From the NCBI RefSeq assembly GCF_028369095.1, contig NZ_JAQNDN010000024.1, positions 345,350-409,349 of the forward strand: a stretch of DNA of 64,000 bases, read 5' to 3'. Below the pieces are notes generated by a model, which did not search any database, was not told where the DNA came from, and saw nothing but the letters and a program-made list of their open reading frames with translations. The position numbers and the translations under genes were made by a program. This DNA is from Nannocystis radixulma. Lineage in GTDB: Bacteria; Myxococcota_A; Polyangia; Nannocystales; Nannocystaceae. Position 1 is the stretch's first letter, and the number at the start of each line of letters is the position of its first letter. Of this stretch, positions 5,846 to 58,866 are shown one piece after another.

Positions 5846-6661
5846 TCAGAGCGTCAGCTTCATGCCGTCGCGGGCGGCGACGGTGCTGGGGAAGTGCTCC
5901 TGCGCGGCCGCCTCGATCTTGCGCAGCATCTCGTCGTCGTGGGTCGGGTCGTGGCTGTAGAGCACGAGCTTGCGGACGTGAGCGGCGCGGGCCAGCTTGA
6001 CGGCCTCGGAGAAGGTGCTGTGGCCCCAGCCCTGCTTGCCGGCGCTGTACTCCTCGGAGGTGTACTGGGCGTCGTAGATCAGGACGTCTGCCCCTTCGGC
6101 CAGGTCACGCAGCGTCTCGTTGATGTGGTCGGGCGCGTGCTCGGTGTCGGTGGCGAACACGATCGACCTGCCGCGCTCGTCGATGCGGAAGGCGGTGCTC
6201 TCCTGCGGGTGCGGCAGCGGGATGTGGCGCAGCGTCGCCTCGGCGATGGTCGTGACCTCTTGCGGGAGCAGCTGGTGGAACAGCTTGGTCGAGCCCATCA
6301 CGTCGAGGCCGACGGGGAAGAACGGCGTCGACATCTGGCGGTCGAGGATCGTGCGCGCGTCCTTCGTGCAGTAGATGTGGAGCCGGAAGTCCGGCATGAA
6401 GGCCGGCGGGAAGAACGGGAAGCCCTGGATGTGATCCCAATGTGCGTGGGTCAAAAACAGGTGGATGACGCGCGAGTGCGCGGCTCGAGTCTGTACGAGT
6501 CGGATGCCGAGTTCGCGGATGCCCGAGCCCGAGTCGAAGATGATGGTGTCCGTCGTGCTCTCGAGCGCGATCTGAAGGCAGGGCGTGTTCCCGCCGAACT
6601 CCACGTACTTCGGCCCGGAAACTGGAATGCTGCCCCGGGTGCCCCAGAAAGTCACTTCCAT
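5846..6661 (-). CDS. MBL-fold metallo-hydrolase
   Basis: HLFLTHAHWDHIQG metallo-beta-lactamase motif; 271 aa; noticeably lower GC than its neighbours. Confidence 0.8.
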   Translation of the reverse strand: MEVTFWGTRGSIPVSGPKYVEFGGNTPCLQIALESTTDTIIFDSGSGIRELGIRLVQTRAAHSRVIHLFLTHAHWDHIQGFPFFPPAFMPDFRLHIYCTKDARTILDRQMSTPFFPVGLDVMGSTKLFHQLLPQEVTTIAEATLRHIPLPHPQESTAFRIDERGRSIVFATDTEHAPDHINETLRDLAEGADVLIYDAQYTSEEYSAGKQGWGHSTFSEAVKLARAAHVRKLVLYSHDPTHDDEMLRKIEAAAQEHFPSTVAARDGMKLTL

Positions 6662-7048
6662 GGGGCGCTATCCTTCGCTGGCTGCATGTTTCGCCGATGA
6701 TAGGGCAGAACAAATTCGGCTGGCAAGCACGGGCCCATGGCACCTCGGAGGTCGGACGGAGATGATATCGCAGTCCGGCCGCGAAGGGGCACGCGCACCA
6801 GGCGGTCGCAACCCGGTAAAGGCGCCTCGGCGGGGCCGCGGGGGAGTCGGGAAACGCCGGGGTTTTTCGCCGCCACCGGGCCGGAAGGCGCGGCTGGGCG
6901 CCCGCAGGCCACTTGCGACGGCTACCGAGGCGTGGGCGACCCGGGCCCACATGGCGCTTGGCGCGTGAGGCGGCGCCGCCGAATTCGCGCGTGGCCGATG
7001 GTTCATGGCGAAGCGCACCGGTTTATTCGGGGGGCCGATCCCGGCGAC

Positions 7049-8266
7049 TCAGCCGATGATCATGTCCTCGCGGCGGGCCACACCCCCGGCGGCGAAGCGA
7101 CCCGGGGACCAGCGCGCGAGCATCGGGTGGGCCTCGCCGTCGACGAGCCAGCGCGCCAACAGTCGGCCGACGGCCGGCGCCATCATGAAGCCGTGGCCGG
7201 TGAAGCCGCAGACCTGAATGAAATCGGGGTGTCCGGGGCTGGGGCCGACGATCGCGTCGCCGTCGGGCGAGACGTCGTAAGGACCGACCCACTGGCGCAG
7301 GACCTTCATCGCCGCGGTGATCGGCATCAGCCGCGTGAGCGTGCGGCTCAGGTGGGTGAGGAAGCGGAGGCTGGAGTGGAGGGTGAGGCTCTCGTCGCTG
7401 CCGTCGGGCGCGTCGGGCAGGCTGATGCCGGTGACGAGCTCGCCGCGGGTGCTCTGAGAGAAGTAGAGGCCGGTCGAGAGGTCGACGACCAGGGGGTCGA
7501 GGAACGGCTTGAGCGGCTCGGACGAGAGGATCTCGTGGCGGTGCGGCTTGTTGGGCAGGTCGATGCCGAGCTGCCGGTTGAGCGCGCCGGACCAGGCGCC
7601 GGTGGCGTTGACGACCCGGGCGGCGCGCACGACCTCGCCGGTCGACAGGTGCAGCGCGTAGCCGCGGGCCAGCGGCTCGACGCGGGTGACGCTGGTGTGG
7701 GTGCGCAGGAGGACGCCGCGCTCGACCGCCTTGGCGGCGTAACCCCACACGAAGGCCCACGGGAAGACGACCCCGTCCTCGGGGTTGAAGGTGGCGAGCC
7801 GGACCTCGGCGACGTCGAGCTGCGGGACGATCGCCTGCGCCTCGGCGGCGGTGAGCAGGCGAGTCGGCGCGCCGACCTCGGCGTGGAGGTGGACGTTGCG
7901 CTCGAGCCGACGCTCGCCGGCCTCGCTGCGGGCCAGGAACAAGTAGCCGCCCTGGCGGAACCACAGGTTGATGCCGAGTTGCTGCGCGAGGTCCTTGCAC
8001 AGCTCGATGCTGTCCATCATCAGGCGGACGTTGCCGGCGTCGCCCCACTGCATGCGCACGCCGCCGCCGTTGCGGCCGGAGGCGCCGCTGACGAGGTAGC
8101 TGCGCTCGATGACGGCGACCGACAGCGGCGGCTTGCCCTTCGCACCTGTCCCGGAGAGCAGGGCCAGGTGGTAGGCGAGCCCCAGGCCCATGATGCCGCC
8201 GCCGATCACGGCGACGTCGACGTCGGCCGGCAGGGCGGTGTCGGAACGGCCCATCGCTGCCGTCAT
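7049..8266 (-). CDS. FAD-dependent oxidoreductase, sarcosine oxidase beta / HcnC / OoxB-like subunit
   Basis: DVDVAVIGGGIMGLGLAYHLA...GRNGGGVRM... The ATG at 8266 overlaps the stop of the upstream small gene. The rest of ORF 7049..10048 is an Arg-rich artefact. Confidence 0.8.
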   Translation of the reverse strand: MTAAMGRSDTALPADVDVAVIGGGIMGLGLAYHLALLSGTGAKGKPPLSVAVIERSYLVSGASGRNGGGVRMQWGDAGNVRLMMDSIELCKDLAQQLGINLWFRQGGYLFLARSEAGERRLERNVHLHAEVGAPTRLLTAAEAQAIVPQLDVAEVRLATFNPEDGVVFPWAFVWGYAAKAVERGVLLRTHTSVTRVEPLARGYALHLSTGEVVRAARVVNATGAWSGALNRQLGIDLPNKPHRHEILSSEPLKPFLDPLVVDLSTGLYFSQSTRGELVTGISLPDAPDGSDESLTLHSSLRFLTHLSRTLTRLMPITAAMKVLRQWVGPYDVSPDGDAIVGPSPGHPDFIQVCGFTGHGFMMAPAVGRLLARWLVDGEAHPMLARWSPGRFAAGGVARREDMIIG

Positions 8267-8599: not shown

Positions 8600-8765
8600 A
8601 TAGGGCTGTCCGCGGGGACATGTGCGAGCGCGGGGCGGACGACGGGGCCTGCCGGCGCGAGGGGGCTGTCCGCGGGGACATGTGGGAACGGGGGGCGGCT
8701 GTCCGCGGGGACAGGTGCGGGCGCGGCGACTCAGGCGCGGGCATGGCTGTCCTTCGGGGCAGGTG
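8600..8765. repeat. four copies of the hairpin repeat GGCTGTCC-GCGG-GGACA(T/G)GTG between the subunit genes of the HcnABC-like operon
   Basis: CTGTCC at about 8606, 8666, 8698 and 8747, each followed 3-5 nt later by GGACAKG. The last copy overlaps the C-terminus of the large-subunit gene. Confidence 0.8.
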
Positions 8766-11044: not shown

Positions 11045-11926
11045 CTACTGCGGCAGGCAGGTGGCCGGGGCGGCGGCGCCGGCGAAGGTCGGGCCCATGT
11101 CGCGGTAGGTGTGGGCGCGCCAGAAGTCGCGCGGGTCCTCGGCCAGGTGGAGCGTGCGGTCGTCGCCGGTGCCGGTGACGGTGATCGCGGTCTCGAGGCC
11201 GTCGTGGCGCAGCGGGAACGACAGCGCCAGCCGGTCGCCGCGCTGGCGGTAGGTGAGGGTCTCGGTGGTCCACTCGTCGTAGTCGCCGCGGTGGTGCCAG
11301 CCGACGCCGCGGCCGTCGATCGCCTGCGGCTGCAGCTGGTAGATCGAGAAGCCCATGCCGCCGGTGGCGTAGCGGACCTCCTCGCCCCACAGCCGCCCGC
11401 CGATCCGGTCTCTGGCCGTGAGGACAGGTCCTTCGGAGCCTGTCGCTCGGGGCATGTCCTCGGGGCCATCGAAGCAGGGGGCGTCGGTGGCCGCTGCCGG
11501 GGCTTTGAAGTAGCGGGCGCCGCCGGCCTCGCGCGGGTCGTCGTCGAGGACCAGCCAGGTGCGGCCGCCGCCTTCCTCGAGGCGGTAGGGGACGCGCCGG
11601 CGCTCGCCGGTCTTGCGGAAGGTCAGCTCGAGGACGCCGCCCTGGGCGCTGTAGTCGAAGCTGTGGGTGTTGGTCAGGCCGACCTTGCCGTAGCGGTAGA
11701 GGCCGAAGCCGCCCTCGTGGAAGAACCAGAAGCGCATGCGGTCGCCCTCGGCGAGGGCGTCGAAGCGGTGCCACACGCCCAGCAGCGCGGGGTCGACGGC
11801 CTCGATCGCACAGCTGTCCTCGGGGACAGGATCGGGGGGCGCGAGCGGCGAGGCGATGATGAACGGGGCCGACAGCGCGAGGACCGCGAGGAGGTAGACG
11901 CTCGAGAGACAGAAGGGGCGCCGCAT
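11045..11926 (-). CDS. hypothetical secreted protein
   Basis: Signal peptide MRRPFCLSSVYLLAVLALSAPFIIASP; ATG at 11926. The upstream part of ORF 11045..12607 is an artefact. Contains two repeat-core copies in-frame, encoding PEDM and PVPED. Confidence 0.5.
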   Translation of the reverse strand: MRRPFCLSSVYLLAVLALSAPFIIASPLAPPDPVPEDSCAIEAVDPALLGVWHRFDALAEGDRMRFWFFHEGGFGLYRYGKVGLTNTHSFDYSAQGGVLELTFRKTGERRRVPYRLEEGGGRTWLVLDDDPREAGGARYFKAPAAATDAPCFDGPEDMPRATGSEGPVLTARDRIGGRLWGEEVRYATGGMGFSIYQLQPQAIDGRGVGWHHRGDYDEWTTETLTYRQRGDRLALSFPLRHDGLETAITVTGTGDDRTLHLAEDPRDFWRAHTYRDMGPTFAGAAAPATCLPQ

Positions 11927-20125: not shown

Positions 20126-20341
20126 CGCCCGAGGTTTTCAGGCCCGGAGGGCCGCGGAGTCAAGCCTCCCGCGGCGCGGCGCCGACGGGCCGCGAAGGCG
20201 ACCGCACACCCCCGCGACGCACGGCGTGCGCCGCGAATCTCGTGCGCGTGGGCCCGGACGGCGGCGCAGCCGCTCGCCTGCAAACGGGGCTCCGCACCCA
20301 GCCCGGCCCACAACGGCGCCGGGCCTTGATACCATGCCGGT

Positions 20342-23314
<2,973 letters not shown>

Positions 23315-43424: not shown

Positions 43425-44516
43425 TCACGGGCACAGCGGACGCGACGGGGTGGCGCAGGCGAGGCCGGCGACGAGCTCGACGCGGTAGTTGTCGCGGCGG
43501 GCCTCGGCGTCGGCGGCGATCGGGCTGTCGGCGCCGCGCGAGGTGGGCACGAGCATGACGTGGACGAAGCCGCGGTCGACCAGGGTGTCGCGCACCTTTT
43601 CGGCCATCGTCAGGCCGAGCCGGCGGGCCTGGTCGGGCGGGAGGTCGTCGCCGGTGTGGCCCTCGAGCGAGAAGTTGCCGCCGGTGCGGTAGCGCGGGGC
43701 GAGCTGCTTGCGCCGGGCGTCGAGCTCGAGGAAGGCATGCTCGTCGAGCTCGAGGGTGTCGGGGTCGTAGGGGATCCGGACGACGAAGCGGCCGCAACCG
43801 GCGACGAAGGCCTCGGGACAGCCGTCGTCGTCCTCCTCGCCGTCGACGGTCTCGGGCTGGTTGCGGCAGTCGTGGCGGCCCTTGCCGGGCTCGAGCCGGC
43901 CGTCACAGTTGACCCACTCGCTGCCGGTCCAGCGGGCAGCGTCGAGGACGCCGTCGCCGTCGTTGTCGCGATCGGGGCAGCCGTCGTGGTCCTGGTGGCG
44001 ATCGTAATCTTCGGGGAGGTCGGGGCAGGGATCGTCGGGGTCGGCGACGCCGTCGCGGTCGTGATCGGGGGCGTAGGGCGGGCACAGGCCGCGCAGCTGC
44101 AGCCAGCTTCCAGCCAGCGGATCGTCGGGCGGCCCGCCGGGGACGCCGTGGACCACGAGGGTGACGCGATCGGCGGGATGGACCGCGGCGCGGAAGCGGG
44201 CCAGGACGTCGTCGCCGAGGGCCTGCAGGCCGGCGTCGCGTCGCGTGGGATCGGCGAGCTCGCGGGCGGCCGCGGCCATGTGCACGGCCAGCTCGACGCG
44301 CAGCTCGGGGTCGGCGCGCAGGCGATCGATCCAGTCGCCGAGCTCGGAGGCGCCGCTCTCGTCGAGCGCGGGCGCGGCGGGGCCGGCGTCGAGGTACGGG
44401 ATGGTCGCGAGGATCGCGGCGCACTCGGAGACAGGGGGACGGCGGGCCGGCTCGGAGTGCTGGGAAGCGCAGGCCAGGCAGAGAGTCAGCAACCCGAGTC
44501 GCACGGCGCTTCGCAT
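43425..44516 (-). CDS. OmpA-family lipoprotein with thrombospondin type-3 (TSP3) repeats
   Basis: LCLAC lipobox; DHDRDGVADPDDPCPD...DHDGCPDRDNDGDGVLD calcium-binding repeats; C-terminal OmpA-like domain. Confidence 0.75.
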   Translation of the reverse strand: MRSAVRLGLLTLCLACASQHSEPARRPPVSECAAILATIPYLDAGPAAPALDESGASELGDWIDRLRADPELRVELAVHMAAAARELADPTRRDAGLQALGDDVLARFRAAVHPADRVTLVVHGVPGGPPDDPLAGSWLQLRGLCPPYAPDHDRDGVADPDDPCPDLPEDYDRHQDHDGCPDRDNDGDGVLDAARWTGSEWVNCDGRLEPGKGRHDCRNQPETVDGEEDDDGCPEAFVAGCGRFVVRIPYDPDTLELDEHAFLELDARRKQLAPRYRTGGNFSLEGHTGDDLPPDQARRLGLTMAEKVRDTLVDRGFVHVMLVPTSRGADSPIAADAEARRDNYRVELVAGLACATPSRPLCP

Positions 44517-44741
44517 CGGTTCTCGTCTGCAGCATACGTGCGACGGCTCGGGGCGGCGTGGATCTGGTGCGCCAGGGCAGCGAAACGCCCGCGGGCGCGG
44601 GGGCGCCGGTTGTGGCGGGCTGGAGCCGCCTCTCGGGGGACGCGGCGGGTCGGGATTCCGCGCGATCTCGGGGGTCGGCGGACGCGGGGGGCGGCGCCCG
44701 GCGCGTGGGGGACGGCGCTCGCCCCGGGCGCTGCGGCGGTT

Positions 44742-44836
44742 CTCAGGATGTCTGAAAGGACATGTGAGTCGGGCGGGCCTTTGCCCGCGGCGCCGCTGCG
44801 CCGTCAGGATGTCTGAAAGGACATGTGACTCGGGCG
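44742..44836. repeat. two copies of a ~35-bp element CAGGATGTCTGAAAGGACATGTGA(G/C)TCGGGCGGGC, 60 bp apart
   Basis: Perfect duplicate apart from 1 nt; contains the ATGTC-N6-GACAT hairpin. Confidence 0.8.
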
Positions 44837-44862
44837 GGCTCGCGTGTGCGAGGACGAGGGGG

Positions 44863-47907
<3,045 letters not shown>

Positions 47908-48111
47908 CAGCTCCGCAAAGTCCGCCGGGAGCAGCACGACGCCAAGGATACGTGAGTCCAGGCCGGTGGCCGGGCGCGGCCGGCGAGAACGGTGTTGCCG
48001 CCGAGCCAGGCGGGCGCGGACGGCCCGCCGGCCGCCGGGCGGGCCCGCCTCCGAGGGCCAAGCGGGCGGCGAGGAGGCAGGCGGACGTCGGCGCTGGACG
48101 GGGTCCACACC

Positions 48112-48190
48112 GACATGTCATGAACGACATGTCGAGAAAGACATGTTTGTCGAGATATGTCCTCCGGGACATGCCCCGAAGGTCATGGCT
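48112..48190. repeat. 14-bp phased array, 6 units
   Basis: ATGTC/ATGTT/ATGCC at about 48115, 48129, 48143, 48157, 48171 and 48185. Confidence 0.85.
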
Positions 48191-53985: not shown

Positions 53986-55329
53986 CTACCTCCACCCGGA
54001 CTCGTCCCCCGCGGCGCCGGTTTCCGTCGGCGCCGGGGCGTCGGGGCAGACGAAGCGCTCGAAGCGGCGGGCGAGCACCGAGTCGGGCAGCCGCGCGGCC
54101 AGGCGCTGGGCGGCGGCGGCCGCGTCGGCGGGGCGACCCTGCAGGCACAGGACCTCGACCGCCGCGGCCTCGCGGGCGTCGACGAGGGCGCCGCGCGGGA
54201 ACTCGCGCGCGTGGGTGGCCAGCAGCTGGGCGGCGGCCGCCGGATCGCGGGCGTCGAGGCGGGCGCGGGCGCGATCGAGGAGGGCGACCTCGGCGGCGAG
54301 GGCGTCGCTGGCGTTGCGAGCTGTCCCTTGCGACAGGTTGGCTCGGGCGCCGTCGACCTCGCCGGCGAAGGGGTAGCCGGCGCTGCGAGCTGGCCCTTGC
54401 GACAGGTGACCAGCGGGCCCGGATGTCTCGCGGGACAGGTCGGGCACAGCGGGCGCCGGTGGGGCGCCGGCGGATTCGGATGTCTCCGGGGACAGGCCCG
54501 ACGCGAGCGGGGGCGCAGCGGTCGCGGGGCGAGCCGAATCAGATGTCTCTGGGGACAGGGCGGTCTCGGCGGCGCGGTCGCGGGCCTGGCGGGGCGGGGC
54601 CGCGGCGACCACGGCGGTGGCGCCGGCGAGGAGGAGGGTGGTCATGACGCCGGTGCGGGCGGTGGCCCAGGCGGCGGCGACGGTGGCGAATTTGGCGGGC
54701 GTGAGCAGCGGGAGCATCACGGCCCAGGTGCGCTCGGCGGCGGCGGGCGGCGGATCGTCGCGCCGGCGCGCGGCGGCCAGCAGCTCGGGGCTGGCGGCCA
54801 GCTCGTGGAGCTGGGCGCGGGCGAGGCGGAGGCGCGAGTAGACGGTGTTGAGCGGCAGGTCGAGCTCGGCGGCGATCTCGGGGCCGCTCATGCCGAGCAG
54901 CTCGGTCAGCTCCCACACGTCGCGGGCGCCGCGAGGCAGGCGGGCGAGCAGGCGCTCGAGCACGCGGGCGGAGTCGTGGCGCTCGTGCGGGGCCTCGCCG
55001 GGGCTGCCGGTGAACTCGCCGAACGCGGCGATCCGGCGCGAGTGGCGGGCGGCGCCGCGGTGGTAATGCGAGGCGATCCTTCGCGTGACGCCGTACAGCC
55101 AGGCACGCGCCGAGACCTGGTAGTGGATCTGGTCGAAGCGGCGGAAGGCGGTGAGAAAGACGTCCTGGACGACGTCGTCGCGGGCGGCCGCGGGAATGCC
55201 GAAGTACCTGGCGGCGGCCCACACGAAGGGGAATTCGCGGTCGTAGATGGCGCGAAAGCGCGCTTCTCGGTCGGTGAGTTGCACGGGTCCAGGAGTGCTG
55301 TCCCCGGGCCGCGAGGATTCCGTCACCAT
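53986..55329 (-). CDS. ECF sigma-70 factor fused to a transmembrane anti-sigma-like C-terminal extension
   Basis: Sigma-2 (VQDVFLTAFRRFDQ) and sigma-4 (ELTELLGMSGPEIAAELDLPLNTVYSRLRLAR) regions; TM helix VMTTLLLAGATAVVAAA; the linker carries five repeat-derived ~20-aa units LSPETSDSA / LSPETSESA / LSRETSGPA / LSQGPARSA / LSQGTARNA; TPR-like C-terminal domain. Confidence 0.7.
   Translation of the reverse strand: MVTESSRPGDSTPGPVQLTDREARFRAIYDREFPFVWAAARYFGIPAAARDDVVQDVFLTAFRRFDQIHYQVSARAWLYGVTRRIASHYHRGAARHSRRIAAFGEFTGSPGEAPHERHDSARVLERLLARLPRGARDVWELTELLGMSGPEIAAELDLPLNTVYSRLRLARAQLHELAASPELLAAARRRDDPPPAAAERTWAVMLPLLTPAKFATVAAAWATARTGVMTTLLLAGATAVVAAAPPRQARDRAAETALSPETSDSARPATAAPPLASGLSPETSESAGAPPAPAVPDLSRETSGPAGHLSQGPARSAGYPFAGEVDGARANLSQGTARNASDALAAEVALLDRARARLDARDPAAAAQLLATHAREFPRGALVDAREAAAVEVLCLQGRPADAAAAAQRLAARLPDSVLARRFERFVCPDAPAPTETGAAGDESGWR
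54300..54560. repeat. five ~60-bp units each carrying a CTGTCC-N3-5-GGACAG hairpin, inside the anti-sigma linker coding sequence
   Basis: GCTGTCCCTTGCGACAGG, CTGGCCCTTGCGACAGG, ATGTCTCGCGGGACAGG, ATGTCTCCGGGGACAGG, ATGTCTCTGGGGACAGG. Confidence 0.8.
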
Positions 55330-56393
55330 GGGTCTCCGAGGCGCACTTCGAGGCCGAGGAGCAGGCGCAGCGACACCGGGGACGGCTCGAACAGGCGGAC
55401 GGGGGCGTCGGGGTCGCTGAGGTCGAAGCGGGCGGCGGCCAGGCGGAGGAGGCCCTGGACGGCGAAATTGAGGCTCAGCAGGCGGTGGAAATGCCAGGCG
55501 ACGCCGGCCGAGACGCGGGCGGCCGTCCAGAAGCCGGTGCCGGTGCGGGCCCCGGGGCCGCGGCCCTCGCCGCGCAGGCCGCCCATCTCGAAGCCGCCGC
55601 ACAGCGGGAACTCGAGGCGCGCACGACCGAGCCGGGCGCAGCCCTGGACGCCGGCGGCGAACAACGAGACGGTCACCGAGTTGACGCCGCGGGCCTCGGT
55701 CTGCGGGCCGAGGTAGACGCCGTGGAACTCGAGCCGGGCGCGGCGCCAGAGCACGCCGGTGGCGAAATCGAGGCCGGCGGTGGGGCGCGGGAGGGCGCCG
55801 ACCTCGAAGCCGCCGGAGAGGCGCAGGAAGCCGCCGGGGCGGCGGCGGGGCGGGGGTGGCGACGGGGTGAGCTCGGCGAGGTCGACGACGACGGCCGGGG
55901 GAGGAGGTTCGGGGGCGTCGACGGGCTCGGGGCGCGCGGGCGGGGTGGGTTCGACGGGGGGCGCGGTCTGGGCGGCTGGCGGGTCGGGCTCGATGGGCTC
56001 GTCGGGGAGCGGCGGCTCGGGCGAGGGCTCGAGCTCGACCGGCAAGGCCGGATCGACGGCAGCGGCGGAGGGGTCGAGGGCGAGGGCGCTGAGCAGGGCG
56101 GCGGCGTCGACGAGGGCGGCGCACTGGCGGGTCGTGAGCGCGCGCGTCTGCGTGTGGCCGGCGACGGTGAGGCGCAGGTCGAGGTGGTAGCGCCCGGCAG
56201 AGGTGCGCCCGATCTGGCCGACGAGCGCGAGCTCCTGGGCCGTCGGCACGCGACCGAGCCGGCCGGCGATCGCCCGCTCGAGGGCGGCGCGGTCGGGGCA
56301 GCCGGGCGGGGCCTGCCAGACGATCGCTCCCTCGGCCGGAGGTTCAGGCACCTGGGTGACAAGCAGCGCGGCGAGGAGCGGCGCGAACGGCAT
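55323..56393 (-). CDS. hypothetical Pro-rich secreted protein, upstream and overlapping the ECF gene
   Basis: N-terminal hydrophobic MPFAPLLAALLV; PEPP/PPA-rich; 356 aa; coding status is moderately uncertain given the GC bias. Confidence 0.45.
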   Translation of the reverse strand: MPFAPLLAALLVTQVPEPPAEGAIVWQAPPGCPDRAALERAIAGRLGRVPTAQELALVGQIGRTSAGRYHLDLRLTVAGHTQTRALTTRQCAALVDAAALLSALALDPSAAAVDPALPVELEPSPEPPLPDEPIEPDPPAAQTAPPVEPTPPARPEPVDAPEPPPPAVVVDLAELTPSPPPPRRRPGGFLRLSGGFEVGALPRPTAGLDFATGVLWRRARLEFHGVYLGPQTEARGVNSVTVSLFAAGVQGCARLGRARLEFPLCGGFEMGGLRGEGRGPGARTGTGFWTAARVSAGVAWHFHRLLSLNFAVQGLLRLAAARFDLSDPDAPVRLFEPSPVSLRLLLGLEVRLGDPW

Positions 56394-56577: not shown

Positions 56578-56642
56578 GAGGACATGTCGATACGAACATG
56601 TCTAAATGGGCATGTTGATGAGGACATGCCACGTCGGACAGC
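56578..56642. repeat. 14-bp phased array, 4 units
   Basis: Core starts at about 56584, 56598, 56612 and 56626. Confidence 0.8.
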
Positions 56643-57181: not shown

Positions 57182-57502
57182 TCAGCGGCGCCGGGCGGGG
57201 CGCGGCCGCCACTGGTAGGTGCCGAGGTCGATGCGGCCGCTGTCGCCGAACTCGACGCCCTCCGCGATCAGGAGGGCGCGCTGGCGGGCGCCGGAGGCCC
57301 CGGGCAGGCTGATCTCGCCGCGGGCGTTGAGGACGCGCTGCCACGGGACAGGGCTCCCGCCGGGTAGGGCGTGGAGGGCGTAGCCGACCTGGCGGGCACG
57401 ACCGGGCAAGCCGGCGAGCTCGGCGATCTGGCCGTAGGTGGCCACGCGGCCGCGGGGGATCCGCTGAATGGTGGCGTAGATGCGGGCGTAGTCGGGGTGC
57501 AT
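57182..57502 (-). CDS. atl: alkyltransferase-like protein (MGMT DNA-binding domain, active-site Cys replaced by Trp)
   Basis: IPRGRVATYGQIA...PWQRV in place of the PCHRV methyl-acceptor motif. Confidence 0.7.
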   Translation of the reverse strand: MHPDYARIYATIQRIPRGRVATYGQIAELAGLPGRARQVGYALHALPGGSPVPWQRVLNARGEISLPGASGARQRALLIAEGVEFGDSGRIDLGTYQWRPRPARRR

Positions 57503-57536
57503 GACGGGCGCTCAGGCGCGAGGTGGCGGGAGAGCT

Positions 57537-57720
57537 GGCGAGAATGGCCGATGCAGAGGCGCGGGGCTGCGGGAAACTGGGTGGGGCGGGCCGGACGCGG
57601 CGAGAATGGCCGATGCAGAGGCGCGGGGCTGCGGGAAACTGGGTGGGGCGGGCCGGACGCGGCGAGAATGGCCGATGCAGAGGCGCGGGGCTGCGGGAAA
57701 CTGGGTGGGGCGGGCCGGAC
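57537..57720. repeat. three tandem 61-bp direct repeats
   Basis: GGCGAGAATGGCCGATGCAGAGGCGCGGGGCTGCGGGAAACTGGGTGGGGCGGGCCGGACGC repeated three times at about 57537, 57598 and 57659. The unit shares GGCGAGAATGG and GGGCGGGCCGGACG with the adjacent inverted-repeat element. Confidence 0.85.
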
Positions 57721-57722
57721 GC

Positions 57723-57860
57723 GGCGAGAATGGGTCCCTCGCGACGCGAGACCTGCCATGCCAGATGCTCGACGCCGATGTGGTGCTTGGGACATGTCCG
57801 ACGATTGGCCCGGCGGCTGCGCGTCAGGCATGGGGCCCCTCGCTGCGTCCCATTCTCGCC
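57723..57860. mobile_element. MITE-like 138-bp element, copy A, with 12-bp TIRs GGCGAGAATGGG / CCCATTCTCGCC and a central GGGACATGTCC core
   Basis: A near-identical copy lies in inverted orientation at 58576-58713; terminal inverted repeats are visible; no transposase-sized ORF is associated. Confidence 0.55.
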
Positions 57861-57899
57861 GCGTCCGGCCCGCCCCGCGGGGATTGTCTCGGGCCCCGC

Positions 57900-58450
57900 T
57901 CGTCGTGTGGCAACGAATGTCGTGCCGGCGAATCGGCCGTGCGGGGCGGCGTGTGTCTCGGTGTGGCTCGTCGTGACGAAGGTGTGAGAGCGAATCGACG
58001 GTGCGGGACGGCGAGAGTCTCGGGTGCGGCTCGGTGAGACGAATGTCGTGGGGGCGAAGCGGCTGTGCGGGACGGCGAGCGTCTCGGGTGTGGCTCGTCG
58101 AGACGAACGTCCTGGGGGGCGAAGCGGCTGTGCGGGACGGCGAGAGTCTCGGATGCGGCTCGGTGAGACGAATGTCGTGGGGGCGAAGCGGCTGTGCGGG
58201 ACGGCGAGAGTCTCGGGTGTGGCTCGTCGAGATGAATGTCGTCGGACGAATCGACGTGGGGGCAGGGCGAGAGTCTCGGGTGCGGCTCGTCGAGATGAAT
58301 GTCGTGGGGGCGAAGCGGTTATGCGGGACGGCGAGCGTCTCGGGGGCCGAAAGCCGCGCGGGAACGAAAATCGTGCGAGTGAATCGCGTAGGGACGGGGC
58401 GAGTATCTCGGGCCCGGCTCGTCGTGTGACGAGGAACGTCGCGCTGGCGA
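57900..58450. repeat. about eight tandem ~64-bp GC-rich repeats
   Basis: Unit GAATGTCGTGGGGGCGAAGCGGCTGTGCGGGACGGCGAGAGTCTCGGGTG(C/T)GGCTCG(G/T)(T/C)GAGA(C/T). The CGGGACG landmark recurs at about 58004, 58068, 58133, 58197, 58261 and 58324. Each unit contains a GTCTC...GAGAC inverted repeat. Overlapping ORFs here are treated as artefacts. Confidence 0.8.
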
Positions 58451-58575
58451 TTCGGGTGCTGCGGGCGTGGGAAGAGAACCGGGAGAAGCAGCAGTACCAC
58501 CATTCCAGCGGCACGACGGTCCTCGCGTCTCGTCGAGCGGGGCCCGAGACGATCGTCGCGGGGCGGGCCGGACGT

Positions 58576-58713
58576 GGCGAGAATGGGACGCAGCGAGGGG
58601 CCCCATGCCTGACGCGCAGCCGCCGGGCCAATCGTCGGACATGTCCCAAGAACCACATCGGCGGCGAGCATCTGGCATGGCAGGTCTCGCGTCGCGAGGG
58701 ACCCATTCTCGCC
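58576..58713. mobile_element. MITE-like 138-bp element, copy B (inverted relative to copy A)
   Basis: Its reverse complement matches 57723-57860 with only about 3 mismatches. Confidence 0.55.
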
Positions 58714-58866
58714 ACGCCCGGCCCGCCCCACCCAGTTCTCCCGCAGCCCCGCGCCCTCGAATCGGCCCGGCTCCTCGGGCTGATGCGTCCGGTCGGCTCC
58801 CCGCGCCTCGCATCGGCCCGCGTCCGGTCCCCGTGCCTCGCATCGGCGCCCGGCTGCTCCGACGAG

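Follow-up and report, generated by a model that had tools for sequence, protein, structure and literature searches.

IutY of Pseudomonas putida, an ECF243 hybrid, combines an N-terminal ECF sigma factor, a transmembrane (TM) segment and a periplasmic domain, and its sigma domain is reportedly freed by regulated proteolysis, by Prc and then by RseP (PMC8999054). Fused membrane extensions are also found in the groups ECF48, ECF52 and ECF53, e.g. in SCO4117 of Streptomyces coelicolor (ECF52), and proteolytic activation has been proposed for them (PMC8999054). In the 2021 classification, the myxobacterial groups ECF220 and ECF276 (both from Sorangium) and ECF270 (from Anaeromyxobacter) carry C-terminal extensions, and membrane proteins have been noted in genes neighbouring ECF220 (PMC7826278, PMC8999054).

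The gene of Nannocystis radixulma studied here lies in a 64,000-nucleotide stretch of DNA (the window) and resembles each of these systems in part. With IutY it shares the order of sigma factor, TM segment and periplasmic domain in one polypeptide. However, IutY has an anti-sigma part of the FecR type and a TonB-dependent receptor as partner, whereas the fusion described here carries a TPR-like domain, lacks FecR and neighbours a gene for a 356-aa protein outside Pfam; it is therefore not a member of the IutY type (ECF243). ECF48, ECF52 and ECF53 likewise place a sensor domain at the C-terminus, behind a sigma domain, one or more TM helices and a proline-rich spacer in the periplasm. ECF52, however, is actinobacterial and bears a zinc-finger (ZAS) anti-sigma domain and a carbohydrate-binding domain, whereas the present fusion is TPR-like and comes from Myxococcota. 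ECF220, ECF276 and ECF270 resemble it as ECF sigma factors of Proteobacteria and Myxococcota that are regulated by a C-terminal extension, and the fused Nannocystis family may already be one of these groups. The original prediction for this locus regarded a sigma/anti-sigma fusion as uncommon. This is true across ECF sigma factors as a whole, but such fusions have been described (IutY, ECF48/52/53; PMC8999054) and Nannocystis genomes each carry several paralogues. The sigma/TM/TPR-like fusion is a curiosity within a known regulator type and no new system.

Palindromic repeats may also contribute to proteins. Rickettsia palindromic elements (RPEs) are located between genes and, in frame, within protein-coding genes (PMC10969869). 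In this study, we describe a clean bacterial case beyond Rickettsia in which a genome-wide non-coding repeat is translated. We consider it likely that the gene encodes a fusion of an ECF sigma factor with a putative anti-sigma factor, acting as a tethered sensor, and that its spacer linker was seeded and then resized by the repeat. Current ideas stay standing, and the points made here are modest.

The fused gene and its domains

The gene is a single uninterrupted ORF of 447 aa on the minus strand (53986-55329), in which an ECF sigma factor is followed by a TM segment, then by a disordered linker and lastly by a TPR-like domain. The NCBI annotation starts 15 codons later and gives 432 aa (P0001, 100% identity). 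The ATG overlaps the stop codon of the upstream gene (ATGGTGA). This layout had been predicted from the letters, and ORF, Pfam, AF2 and Foldseek agree on it.

Sigma-70 region 2 (aa 29-95; 55045..55245, minus strand) matches Pfam PF04542 (Sigma70_r2) at E 9.6e-8 and is modelled by AF2 with pLDDT >90, and Sigma-70 region 4 (aa 123-174; 54808..54963, minus strand) matches PF08281 (Sigma70_r4_2) at E 1.5e-11. The NCBIfam model TIGR02937 matches at E 5.7e-18 and exceeds its score cutoff. Regions 2 and 4 are separated by only about 27 aa. With regions sigma-2 and sigma-4 and neither region 3 nor region 1.1, the protein belongs to the ECF (group 4) sigma-70 factors.

Region 4 is followed by a short cytoplasmic juxtamembrane segment (aa 181-205; 54715..54789, minus strand) with the conserved columns RR..PP..A..R.W and two AF2 helices, 181-191 and 195-205. 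The TM helix comprises aa 215-244 (54598..54687, minus strand; AF2 helix 215-242) and is strongly conserved; its core, aa 226-244, is the single hydrophobic segment of the protein (Kyte-Doolittle 1.74). The periplasmic linker (aa 245-339, about 95 aa; 54313..54597, minus strand) is predicted to be disordered (pLDDT ~40), consists almost wholly of five repeated segments (repeat families D1 and D2) and is hypervariable across orthologues. Its GC3 is 0.78 as compared to 0.93 and 0.96 for the flanking domains.

The C-terminal domain (CTD, aa 340-430; 54040..54312, minus strand) is modelled as five helices (AF2 pLDDT 90-97) and has two invariant cysteines, C395 and C428. Its best Foldseek matches are TPR domains of YbgF/CpoB (2xev), BamD and LpoP, with a TM score of 0.6 and an rmsd of 1.6-1.9 A at an E value of only ~0.1. 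The sequence scores 17.9 bits against TPR_14, under the cutoff of 23.5, and profile search against BamD gives E 0.006. Judged by its predicted fold, the CTD is a TPR-like domain of five helices, and its sequence match to TPR stays below threshold.

The fusion is old, and the same architecture is found in Nannocystis sp. SCPEA4, N. pusilla, N. punicea, N. bainbridge, N. exedens and RBIL2, and in many paralogues (350-550 aa). All orthologues and paralogues examined are fused, with sigma, TM and CTD parts conserved, and at least seven Nannocystis genomes, assembled independently, as well as several metagenome contigs retain the intact frame. This conservation rejects a hidden stop or frameshift in the N. 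radixulma ORF. It also effectively refutes the idea that separate sigma and anti-sigma genes were joined into one long ORF by an error of assembly or sequencing, or in a pseudogene, even though split sigma/partner pairs with genes overlapping by a few bases exist in other taxa and the CTD of one orthologue, from N. pusilla Na p29 (L005), is frameshifted.

The extension and its stand-alone relatives

Searching with a CTD profile retrieved 23,422 cluster representatives, 5,340 of them at E<=1e-10. The top matches are mostly stand-alone proteins of 220-330 aa in which a short N-terminus leads into a TM helix and a linker connects this helix to the CTD, and their source names all read 'hypothetical protein'. 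The CTD of the fusion is homologous to these proteins (hhalign E 2.5e-28). In three of three loci checked, the stand-alone gene lies directly downstream of an ECF sigma gene and overlaps it. The stand-alone proteins P0224, P0156 and P0196 resemble the extension in their CTD (42% identity) with its two invariant Cys, in the single TM helix, the Pro/Ala-rich linker and the short cytoplasmic N-terminus, and in their position downstream of an ECF sigma factor. They differ in being encoded by separate genes and in having linkers without units derived from TGTC-N6-GACA (see below). At locus L050, the split pair consists of a sigma factor 38% identical and a CTD 42% identical to the fusion. The juxtamembrane segment gives a weak collinear hhalign match to the N-termini of the stand-alone partners (E 0.0017, probability 15%) and is possibly a remnant of that N-terminus.

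The cytoplasmic domain of class I anti-sigma factors has four helices in about 80 aa and frequently contains an HxxxCxxC zinc motif. In the fusion, sigma region 4 and the TM helix are only ~35 aa apart, a distance spanned by two short helices with neither Cys nor His. Neither zf-HC2, RskA, FecR nor any other anti-sigma domain of Pfam or NCBIfam is present in aa 177-447, even at E<=10; the extension matches only TPR and BamD in these databases, below threshold. The extension is not a class I anti-sigma factor (ASD, zf-HC2, RskA or FecR). In the operational sense of a membrane protein that is encoded beside an ECF sigma gene and transcribed together with it, the extension nevertheless qualifies as a putative anti-sigma factor, by the position of its homologues directly downstream of ECF sigma genes at three loci. 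The sequence comparisons suggest that the fusion is an ECF sigma factor joined to a single-pass protein that is normally encoded just downstream, a putative anti-sigma factor. The original prediction of a sigma factor fused to an anti-sigma-like membrane part is borne out to this extent, by CTD homologues adjoining ECF sigma genes and not by a recognised anti-sigma domain. A large unannotated family of single-pass TPR-like proteins, with thousands of cluster representatives, is hereby tied to ECF signalling.

Upstream of the fusion lies a co-oriented partner gene for a protein of 356 aa (55323..56393, minus strand), traced by tblastn and alignment. Its place beside this sigma family is conserved, both among orthologues and paralogues and in other genera. 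At L050, the gene upstream of the split pair shares its N-domain with the 356-aa partner. Profile searches of the partner against Pfam, NCBIfam and PDB gave zero matches, and the protein has no convincing signal peptide. Nannocystales, having fused the single-pass TPR-like protein to its sigma factor, with the conserved partner gene as a third component alongside, offer a tractable one-polypeptide model of such sensors.

We propose the following mechanism. The sigma domain would be cytoplasmic and tethered to the inner membrane by the juxtamembrane segment and one TM helix. The disordered Pro/Ala/Ser-rich linker would span the periplasm and bear the small TPR-like domain, which is probably disulfide-bonded and probably binds a partner; the conserved protein encoded directly upstream is the best candidate. 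While tethered, the sigma factor would be inactive, until a periplasmic signal leads to proteolysis in the linker or CTD and subsequently within the membrane. These cleavages would free the sigma domain, in the way reported for IutY and suggested for ECF52. Such activation by site-1/site-2 proteolysis appears most likely because of the architecture, with one TM helix and a disordered periplasmic linker. Inhibition of the sigma domain is itself an assumption, since there is no recognised anti-sigma domain and the cytoplasmic segment is only ~35 aa long.

Repeat units of the linker

The linker contains five units matching LS-x-[EG]-[TP], all on the minus strand: unit 1 (LSPET, CTG TCC CCA GAG ACA; aa 258, 54544..54558), unit 2 (LSPET, CTG TCC CCG GAG ACA; aa 279, 54481..54495), unit 3 (LSRET, CTG TCC CGC GAG ACA; aa 298, 54424..54438), unit 4 (LSQGP, CTG TCG CAA GGG CCA, with a degenerate right half-site; aa 309, 54391..54405) and unit 5 (LSQGT, CTG TCG CAA GGG ACA; aa 332, 54322..54336). 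Units 1, 2, 3 and 5 are exact copies of TGTC-N6-GACA, and unit 4 has one mismatch (GCCA). Unit 3 is preceded by GAC and reads GACCTGTC, one mismatch from the GACATGTC core; linkers of orthologues carry the exact GACATGTCC core with GAC ATG TCC.

Five units of about 60 bp (20 aa) had been predicted. The number is correct, but the array is irregular, with spacings of 63, 57, 33 and 69 bp, and falls into two sets. The first comprises three copies of a 43-nt segment with 67-74% identity. The second is a 69-bp tandem duplication in two copies (54286..54423; TRF 78% matches, 87% in family D2), which gave rise to units 4 and 5 and also doubled the beginning of CTD helix 1; of the two copies, the older one now reads YPFAGEVDGARA after decay.

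The prediction that each unit forms a CTGTCC-N-GGACAG hairpin did not hold. A 6-bp stem occurs in none of the units: four have the 4-bp half-sites TGTC/GACA, and in one of these they extend to 5 bp (CTGTC/GACAG). RNA hairpin z-scores of units 1 to 5 against shuffled sequence are -1.1, -0.1, -2.4, +0.9 and -1.1, i.e. folding energies are no better than shuffled, and the RNA hairpin reading was dropped. Since the hairpins are weak, a palindrome of double-stranded DNA is more plausible than an RNA structure.

A genus-wide 14-bp repeat

The linker units belong to a family defined here by two inverted half-sites of 4 nt with a spacing of exactly 6 nt; the match often extends to GACATGTCC. In the window, TGTCNNNNNNGACA occurs 23 times as compared to 0.60 expected, a number reached in 0 of 100 shuffles, and 4 of these 23 copies fall in the linker. 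The most enriched 8-mer of the window is GACATGTC (20 sites, 0.39 expected). Of 66 spacings between neighbouring cores, 42 measure exactly 14 bp, and the intergenic copies in Nannocystis form head-to-tail arrays with this period. We counted 104 TGTC-N6-GACA units in 202 kb of Nannocystis DNA and, for other taxa, 5 units in 429 kb; the repeat is nearly absent from related genera. Extrapolated from this sample, each Nannocystis genome would hold thousands of copies. An Rfam scan of the whole window gave zero families, and the literature searched for palindromic or intergenic repeats of Nannocystis or myxobacteria, or for GACATGTC, returned p53 sites only and no description of this genus-specific 14-bp-period family, to which we draw attention here.

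That the linker repeat and the intergenic repeat are the same family, as first suggested, is supported by common half-sites, the 6-nt spacing and rare codons, with the reservation that the likeness covers 14-17 nt and that the linker units are a subtype of their own. Of 30 linker units, 12 have CCGAGA as N6, as against 0 of 74 other units, and the right half of linker units is usually AGACA, not GGACA. The linker units are thus members of the TGTC-N6-GACA/GACATGTC family with a private N6 subtype. When the linker was compared with the rest of the window by blastn, shared sequence ended at 14-17 nt, which rules out a larger element common to linker and intergenic DNA.

Other coding DNA contains about 3 further intragenic units in ~91 kb; a kinase-like ORF reads the unit in another frame, as AVPRDMS. 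Because units are so rare elsewhere in coding DNA, the linkers of the sigma family are a hotspot, which a pure 'tolerated junk' model fails to explain. The disorder of the linker region would account for the tolerance of the protein towards peptide repeats.

REP/REPIN sequences, imperfect palindromes of 20-40 nt, carry a conserved tetranucleotide at the 5' end and are associated with a RAYT transposase, and the 14-bp-period Nannocystis arrays are unlike a REP doublet. The uptake sequences USS and DUS of Pasteurellaceae and Neisseriaceae are lineage-specific, short, over-represented motifs that also lie inside genes and impose peptides in weakly constrained segments. The Nannocystis unit is likewise over-represented and found in weakly constrained protein segments, but USS and DUS are not palindromic 14-bp tandem units, and competence is not known to us for Nannocystis. 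With RPEs the unit shares the character of a lineage-specific palindromic family that adds peptide where the protein tolerates it, in frame and variably present among orthologues. RPEs, however, are ~100-150 bp long, each encode a conserved peptide and enter many unrelated genes, whereas the Nannocystis unit of 14-17 nt is concentrated in linkers of a single protein family, where local tandem duplication multiplies it, and forms intergenic arrays with a strict 14-bp period.

These comparisons bear on the idea that the linker units arose one by one, each through in-frame insertion of a small mobile element (MITE-, REP- or RPE-like). A genome-wide palindromic family present between and within genes, units that are present or absent depending on the strain, and the precedent of in-frame RPEs in Rickettsia genes (PMC10969869) would fit such insertions. 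Yet only 14-17 nt are shared, with neither terminal repeats nor target-site duplications, and the clearest cases of growth are tandem duplications which copied neighbouring coding sequence (the 69 bp with the start of CTD helix 1, and a run with 36-bp spacing in RBIL2). Moreover, the private N6 subtype points to intragenic descent, and the strict period of the intergenic arrays is minisatellite-like rather than that of transposed copies. We therefore regard independent insertion as very unlikely.

Codon usage in the units

The units carry a rare-codon signature. For threonine, 29 of 31 codons are the rare ACA, as compared to a background of 1.5%, and CGA, CCA, CAA and TCC are also over-used. 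Serine is always TCN and never AGC, although AGC makes up 38% of Ser codons, and leucine is always CTG or CTA, at a genome GC3 of 93-96%. Amino acid replacements leave the DNA half-site largely in place (CCA, ATA, GCA). This signature implies that the DNA motif dictates the peptide, and the codon comparisons argue for a linker-unit motif that is kept at the DNA level.

Selection could instead act on the L/M-S-x-E-T peptide, as a site-1 cleavage, recognition or modification motif, with the likeness to the DNA repeat being secondary. All sigma linkers use one shared frame, with Glu (GAG) preferred where intergenic copies have G-GACA; one paralogue group has a single motif at a conserved position; and the motif occurs in ~40% of scored family linkers, as compared to a few per cent by chance according to our own rough estimate. 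The codon choice described above is opposite to the expectation from selection on the peptide, however, and half-site DNA is largely retained when the amino acid changes. The identical unit is also abundant in untranslated arrays and in other frames of other genes, and the peptide motif is absent from the named homologues outside Nannocystis. A selected peptide appears quite improbable on this evidence.

A further alternative is that the units are functional nucleotide elements under selection inside the coding sequence, and the linker a dual-use sequence. They might be sites for an abundant genus-specific DNA-binding protein whose targets would include the intergenic arrays, clusters of CATG methylation sites or rare-codon pauses shortly after the TM helix. 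In one paralogue group, three species share the same 14-mer, TGTCCCGAGAGACA, which includes the rare codons CGA and ACA, at one linker position flanked by unconserved residues; this 14-mer recurs in the other paralogue group. Its identity amid an unconserved linker hints at selection on the unit, at the nucleotide or peptide level, more than at passive tolerance. On the other hand, in 71% of conserved columns these three species also agree at the third position, and shared ancestry alone could account for TGTCCCGAGAGACA. Palindromes with fixed half-site spacing are typical of binding sites for protein dimers, and the weak hairpins favour a site in double-stranded DNA over an RNA structure. In addition, GACATGTC cores form an intergenic array (56581..56625) upstream of the two-gene operon; the array keeps its position across species, with 2-6 copies, amid intergenic DNA that is otherwise unalignable. 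Against such elements, some units have decayed, e.g. LAPET in N. punicea and unit 4 of N. radixulma, closely related strains differ in the presence of units, and no binding protein for the unit is known. Taken together, functional nucleotide elements within the linker are an unlikely explanation. In its broadest form, the unit would be a selected cis-element of a genus-wide Nannocystis system, read by an abundant DNA-binding or DNA-modifying protein, with dual-coding linkers; this we likewise hold to be doubtful. If it were true, the number of units would tune expression of the regulator or the reach of the periplasmic sensor.

Turnover of unit number

According to the explanation we prefer, the linker would be a mere spacer which in Nannocystis was seeded with the genus-wide TGTC-N6-GACA unit and then resized repeatedly, by slippage-type tandem duplication and deletion of unit-bearing segments of 30-70 bp. 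Seeding followed by duplication would make the L/M-S-x-E-T peptide repeats a translated DNA motif. The number of linker units per orthologue ranges from 2 to 10. Strain SCPEA4 lacks unit 5 through a clean 30-bp in-frame indel (strains 94-96% identical), and the length of the disordered linker thus differs even between strains of ~95% identity. These copy numbers and indels agree with the early suggestion that the repeat had expanded a protein linker. The linker of RBIL2 has five MSRET units in a run, 36 bp (12 aa) apart, and N. pusilla has a perfect 36-bp direct repeat where N. radixulma has the 69-bp duplication. Growth of the linker appears to be mostly by local tandem duplication. Loss of the motif by decay is seen in N. 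punicea, where LAPET is encoded by CTG GCG CCA GAG ACC. Between close strains, half-sites counted by eye show 0 changes in 32 nt, with ~2 expected, in a very small sample.

An uninterrupted ECF sigma factor with a membrane-spanning extension

The sigma fusion gene (53986-55329, minus strand; window G+C 72.6%) is an uninterrupted ORF of 447 aa, and its product matches an NCBI protein of Nannocystis radixulma at 100% identity. The ATG overlaps the upstream gene's stop codon, as the sequence ATGGTGA itself shows. The NCBI start lies 15 codons downstream of the ORF start; since residues 1-15 (MxTES..GD..GP) are conserved among orthologues, the longer 447-aa form appears plausible. Searches of Pfam and NCBIfam assign aa 29-95 to Sigma70_r2 and aa 123-174 to Sigma70_r4_2; taken as a whole, the N-terminal part scores as an ECF sigma factor. 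In an AlphaFold2 model built on 32 family members the sigma domain is confidently modelled and is followed by two short helices (aa 181-205), a long helix (aa 215-242), a disordered linker (aa 243-336, pLDDT about 40) and a C-terminal domain (CTD) of five helices (pLDDT about 97 in the full model, 90 when modelled on its own). The sole strongly hydrophobic stretch, aa 226-244, lies inside the long helix (Kyte-Doolittle 1.74). The closest structural matches of the CTD are the periplasmic TPR domains of YbgF/CpoB (2xev), BamD and LpoP (TM about 0.6, rmsd 1.6-1.9 A over 77 residues); sequence searches support the TPR likeness weakly (BamD E 0.006; TPR_14 below cutoff). Profile searches, hydropathy and structure model thus agree with the original prediction of sigma-2, sigma-4, a TM helix and a TPR-like domain in a single ORF. 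Two CTD cysteines are invariant throughout the family, which fits an extracytoplasmic, disulfide-bonded domain.

The same fused architecture is found in orthologues from Nannocystis sp. SCPEA4, N. pusilla, N. punicea, N. bainbridge, N. exedens and N. sp. RBIL2 and in metagenomic contigs. Many paralogues, several to a genome and 350-550 aa long, share it, as do other Myxococcota, among them Paraliomyxa and Nannocystales MAGs. A hidden stop codon or frameshift behind the long ORF, raised as a concern in the original prediction, is therefore ruled out.

One orthologue, at locus L005 of N. pusilla Na p29 (6001-7404), is frameshifted inside the CTD (...ARDPAGAARPRRPRAP...) and represents either a pseudogene or a sequencing error in that assembly. 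The database protein P0014 carries the shifted reading.

Homologues of the extension and the partner gene

The extension had been called anti-sigma-like. No classical anti-sigma domain is detectable in the sigma fusion, with no match to zf-HC2, RskA or FecR, but the genomic position of three stand-alone homologues agrees with the designation. Only about 35 residues separate sigma region 4 from the membrane. A CTD profile search of 1.84 billion proteins returned 23,422 cluster representatives, including 5,340 at E<=1e-10, and most top matches measure 220-330 aa and share one layout: a short cytoplasmic segment at the N-terminus, then a single TM helix, a Pro/Ala-rich linker and the CTD. The CTD occurs outside the fusion too and is not peculiar to fused proteins; fused and stand-alone CTDs align with an hhalign E of 2.5e-28. 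In all three stand-alone loci looked up, an ECF sigma gene lies immediately upstream with its end overlapped. The position immediately downstream of an ECF sigma gene is the canonical one of anti-sigma factors. At one of the three loci (L050), the sigma factor shares 38% identity with the sigma domain of the N. radixulma fusion, the CTD shares 42% identity with the CTD of the fusion, and the gene upstream of the sigma gene has its N-terminal domain in common with the 356-aa partner gene upstream of the fusion. The juxtamembrane segment of the fusion aligns weakly, though collinearly, with the stand-alone N-terminus (E 0.0017, probability 15%). CTD homology, the sigma-adjacent loci, L050 and this collinear match make the joining of a sigma gene to the partner gene downstream of it the most plausible origin of the Nannocystis gene. 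The stand-alone proteins are named 'hypothetical' in databases, and no curated family covers them.

Directly upstream of the fusion, and co-oriented with it, lies a partner gene of 356 aa (55323-56393, minus strand), for whose product we found no relatives in Pfam, NCBIfam or PDB. The gene holds this position in orthologues, paralogues and other genera, with homologues at loci L001-L015 and L050. Two conserved Cys lie in the N-terminal domain of the protein and two more in its Gly/Arg-rich C-terminal domain, with a Pro/Glu-rich spacer between the domains; the protein also carries a W-x-AP-x-GCP motif, and its N-terminal domain is found upstream of a split sigma/partner pair as well. Given the weak hydrophobicity of the N-terminus, the location of the protein is uncertain. 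All species aligned (window 56430-56400 region; L001-L004, L048, L049) have a conserved TGCGnTAGGATG about 15 nt before the partner ATG, possibly a -10-like element or a short-leader signal.

The data support the order of the domains, a single hydrophobic helix followed by a disordered linker and a folded TPR-like domain, the conservation of the partner gene, and homology to membrane proteins encoded next to sigma genes. In the mechanism that we consider most likely, the sigma domain would be cytoplasmic and tethered, the linker would span the periplasm, and the TPR-like domain would bind either a ligand or another protein, for which the product of the upstream gene is a candidate. Activation would proceed by proteolysis of the extension and then intramembrane cleavage, by analogy to IutY, for which activation by proteolysis was reported, and to ECF48/52/53, for which it was proposed (PMC8999054). 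The linker would act as a spacer whose exact sequence is of little importance, which would explain the tolerance of repeats and the variation in linker length (about 55 to 170 residues).

Expansion of the linker

The linker had been described as five tandem units of ~20 aa (~60 bp), each with a CTGTCC-N-GGACAG hairpin. Five units are indeed present (aa 258, 279, 298, 309 and 332), but their spacing is irregular at 63, 57, 33 and 69 bp. Each contains one copy of the 14-bp palindrome TGTC-N6-GACA, with the right half mutated in unit 4. The supposed hairpin comes down to two inverted half-sites of 4-5 nt; as RNA or single strand the units fold weakly and no more stably than shuffled sequence (z from -2.4 to +0.9). 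At DNA level the units form two sets, one of three 43-nt segments (67-74% identity), the other a 69-bp tandem duplication (78-87% identity) in which the first turns of CTD helix 1 have been copied too. The N. pusilla counterpart of this duplication remains a perfect 36-bp direct repeat, with AAEVALLDRARA encoded on either side of a unit.

That the repeat expanded the protein linker, as originally suggested, is borne out by this duplication and by the orthologues: against 5 units in N. radixulma, the seven others compared carry 4, 4, 10, 6, 3, 2 and 4. Strain SCPEA4 (94-96% identical) is without exactly unit 5 through a 30-bp in-frame indel, unit 5 of a metagenomic relative lacks 12 bp, and the RBIL2 linker contains five MSRET units in a run, 36 bp apart.

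In a Nannocystis paralogue group (P0088, P0097, P0107, P0113) the linkers are much longer (130-230 aa) and are built from a different Ser/His/Asp/Glu-rich repeat (...SHDSxS..., ...GESHDSGRPAG...SHESSLPP...), so linker expansion in the family is not limited to TGTC-N6-GACA.

A genus-wide DNA motif, translated in the linker

The most over-represented 8-mer of the window is GACATGTC, with 20 sites against 0.39 expected. Of 66 pairs of neighbouring cores (<=1 mismatch), 42 have a spacing of exactly 14 bp and 10 more one of 28 bp, which identifies the intergenic arrays as head-to-tail runs of TGTC-N6-GACA, the core arising at the junction of two units. Likewise, TGTCNNNNNNGACA occurs 23 times in the window against 0.60 expected, a count reached in 0 of 100 shuffles. 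Fourteen Nannocystis stretches (202 kb) contain 104 units, and 429 kb from 43 loci of other taxa contain 5 units and 2 GACATGTC cores. Arrays sit in intergenic regions of every orientation class, and the one preceding the partner-sigma operon is found at the same place in different species, with anything from 2 to 6 cores. The family has no Rfam match, and no description of it was found in the literature searched.

The linker units are this genus-wide motif in translated form. GC3 is 0.93-0.96 in window genes versus 0.78 in the linker. ACA makes up 1.5% of Thr codons in window genes; in eight orthologous linkers it encodes the position-5 Thr of the unit in 29 of 31 cases, and where position 5 is not Thr the codon is CCA, ATA or GCA (6 of 7). 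The unit Ser is always TCN, never AGC, the Leu is CTG or CTA, and the full GAC ATG TCC core is frequent in orthologous linkers. Two other window genes read the unit in a different frame (AVPRDMS, PVREDM), and the linkers of the named non-Nannocystis homologues are without the motif.

The proposed identity of linker units and intergenic repeats thus holds for the palindrome and its rare ACA codons, but the similarity extends no further than 14-17 nt and the linker units form a subtype of their own: 12 of 30 have CCGAGA as N6 versus 0 of 74 units elsewhere, and the right half is usually AGACA (Glu-Thr), not GGACA. Coding DNA otherwise contains few units (about 3 in 91 kb). Three species share, in a second paralogue group, an identical unit containing the rare codons CGA and ACA; it occupies the same linker position in each, amid unconserved flanking residues. 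The short similarity, the private subtype, the rarity in coding DNA and this identical unit suggest that ancient seeding, once or a few times, was followed by duplication and decay of units within the gene. It is conceivable that the unit itself is under some selection, either as nucleotide sequence or as peptide.

Units also lie in other coding contexts. A 995-aa ORF resembling a Ser/Thr kinase (20330-23314, plus strand) has one TGTC-N6-GACA unit and a GACATGTC core at 20995-21013, directly after the VDFGIARG (DFG) motif in an unusually long Ser/Pro-rich insertion, and reads the unit in another frame than the sigma linkers (AVPRDMSE). At 11815-11828 the unit CTGTCCTCGGGGACAG lies within an apparent minus-strand coding region (translation read directly from the sequence), just after a hydrophobic N-terminal segment (...LAVLALSAPFIIASPLAPPDPVPEDSCAIE...); here too the linker holding the unit directly follows a membrane or signal segment.

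Relation to known systems

Fused regulatory extensions that span the membrane are well established among ECF sigma factors (PMC7826278, PMC8999054), and the present family may belong to an existing myxobacterial extension group such as ECF220 or ECF276. Lineage-specific palindromic repeats translated in frame are known as the RPEs of Rickettsia (PMC10969869). Whereas RPEs measure 100-150 bp, the Nannocystis unit has 14-17 nt; two further differences are that it multiplies by tandem duplication and that it is concentrated in a single protein family. What looks truly undescribed is the genus-wide repeat family with its 14-bp period and, to a lesser degree, the large unannotated family of TM-TPR-like proteins encoded next to sigma genes; these are leads, not yet results.

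Other repeats in the window

A complex, apparently non-coding repeat region lies at 57500-58800. It contains inverted-repeat arms of 229 nt (57699-57927 and 58509-58737; 93% complementary, 581 nt apart), each with one GGACATGTCC core, three 62-bp direct repeats starting at 57575, 57637 and 57699, and internal tandem repeats of about 45 bp at 58000-58450. Near the junction of the minus-strand ORFs 44863-48117 and 43425-45011 (the latter uncertain), a direct repeat occurs twice at 44735-44835, about 61 bp apart, with GGATGTCTGAAAGGACATGTGA in each copy. Intergenic positions 8600-8715 hold three nearly identical units GGCTGTCCGCGGGGACA[T/G]GTG at spacings of 60 and 33 bp, which resemble the 63, 57 and 33 bp of the sigma linker; blastn similarity ends at the unit.
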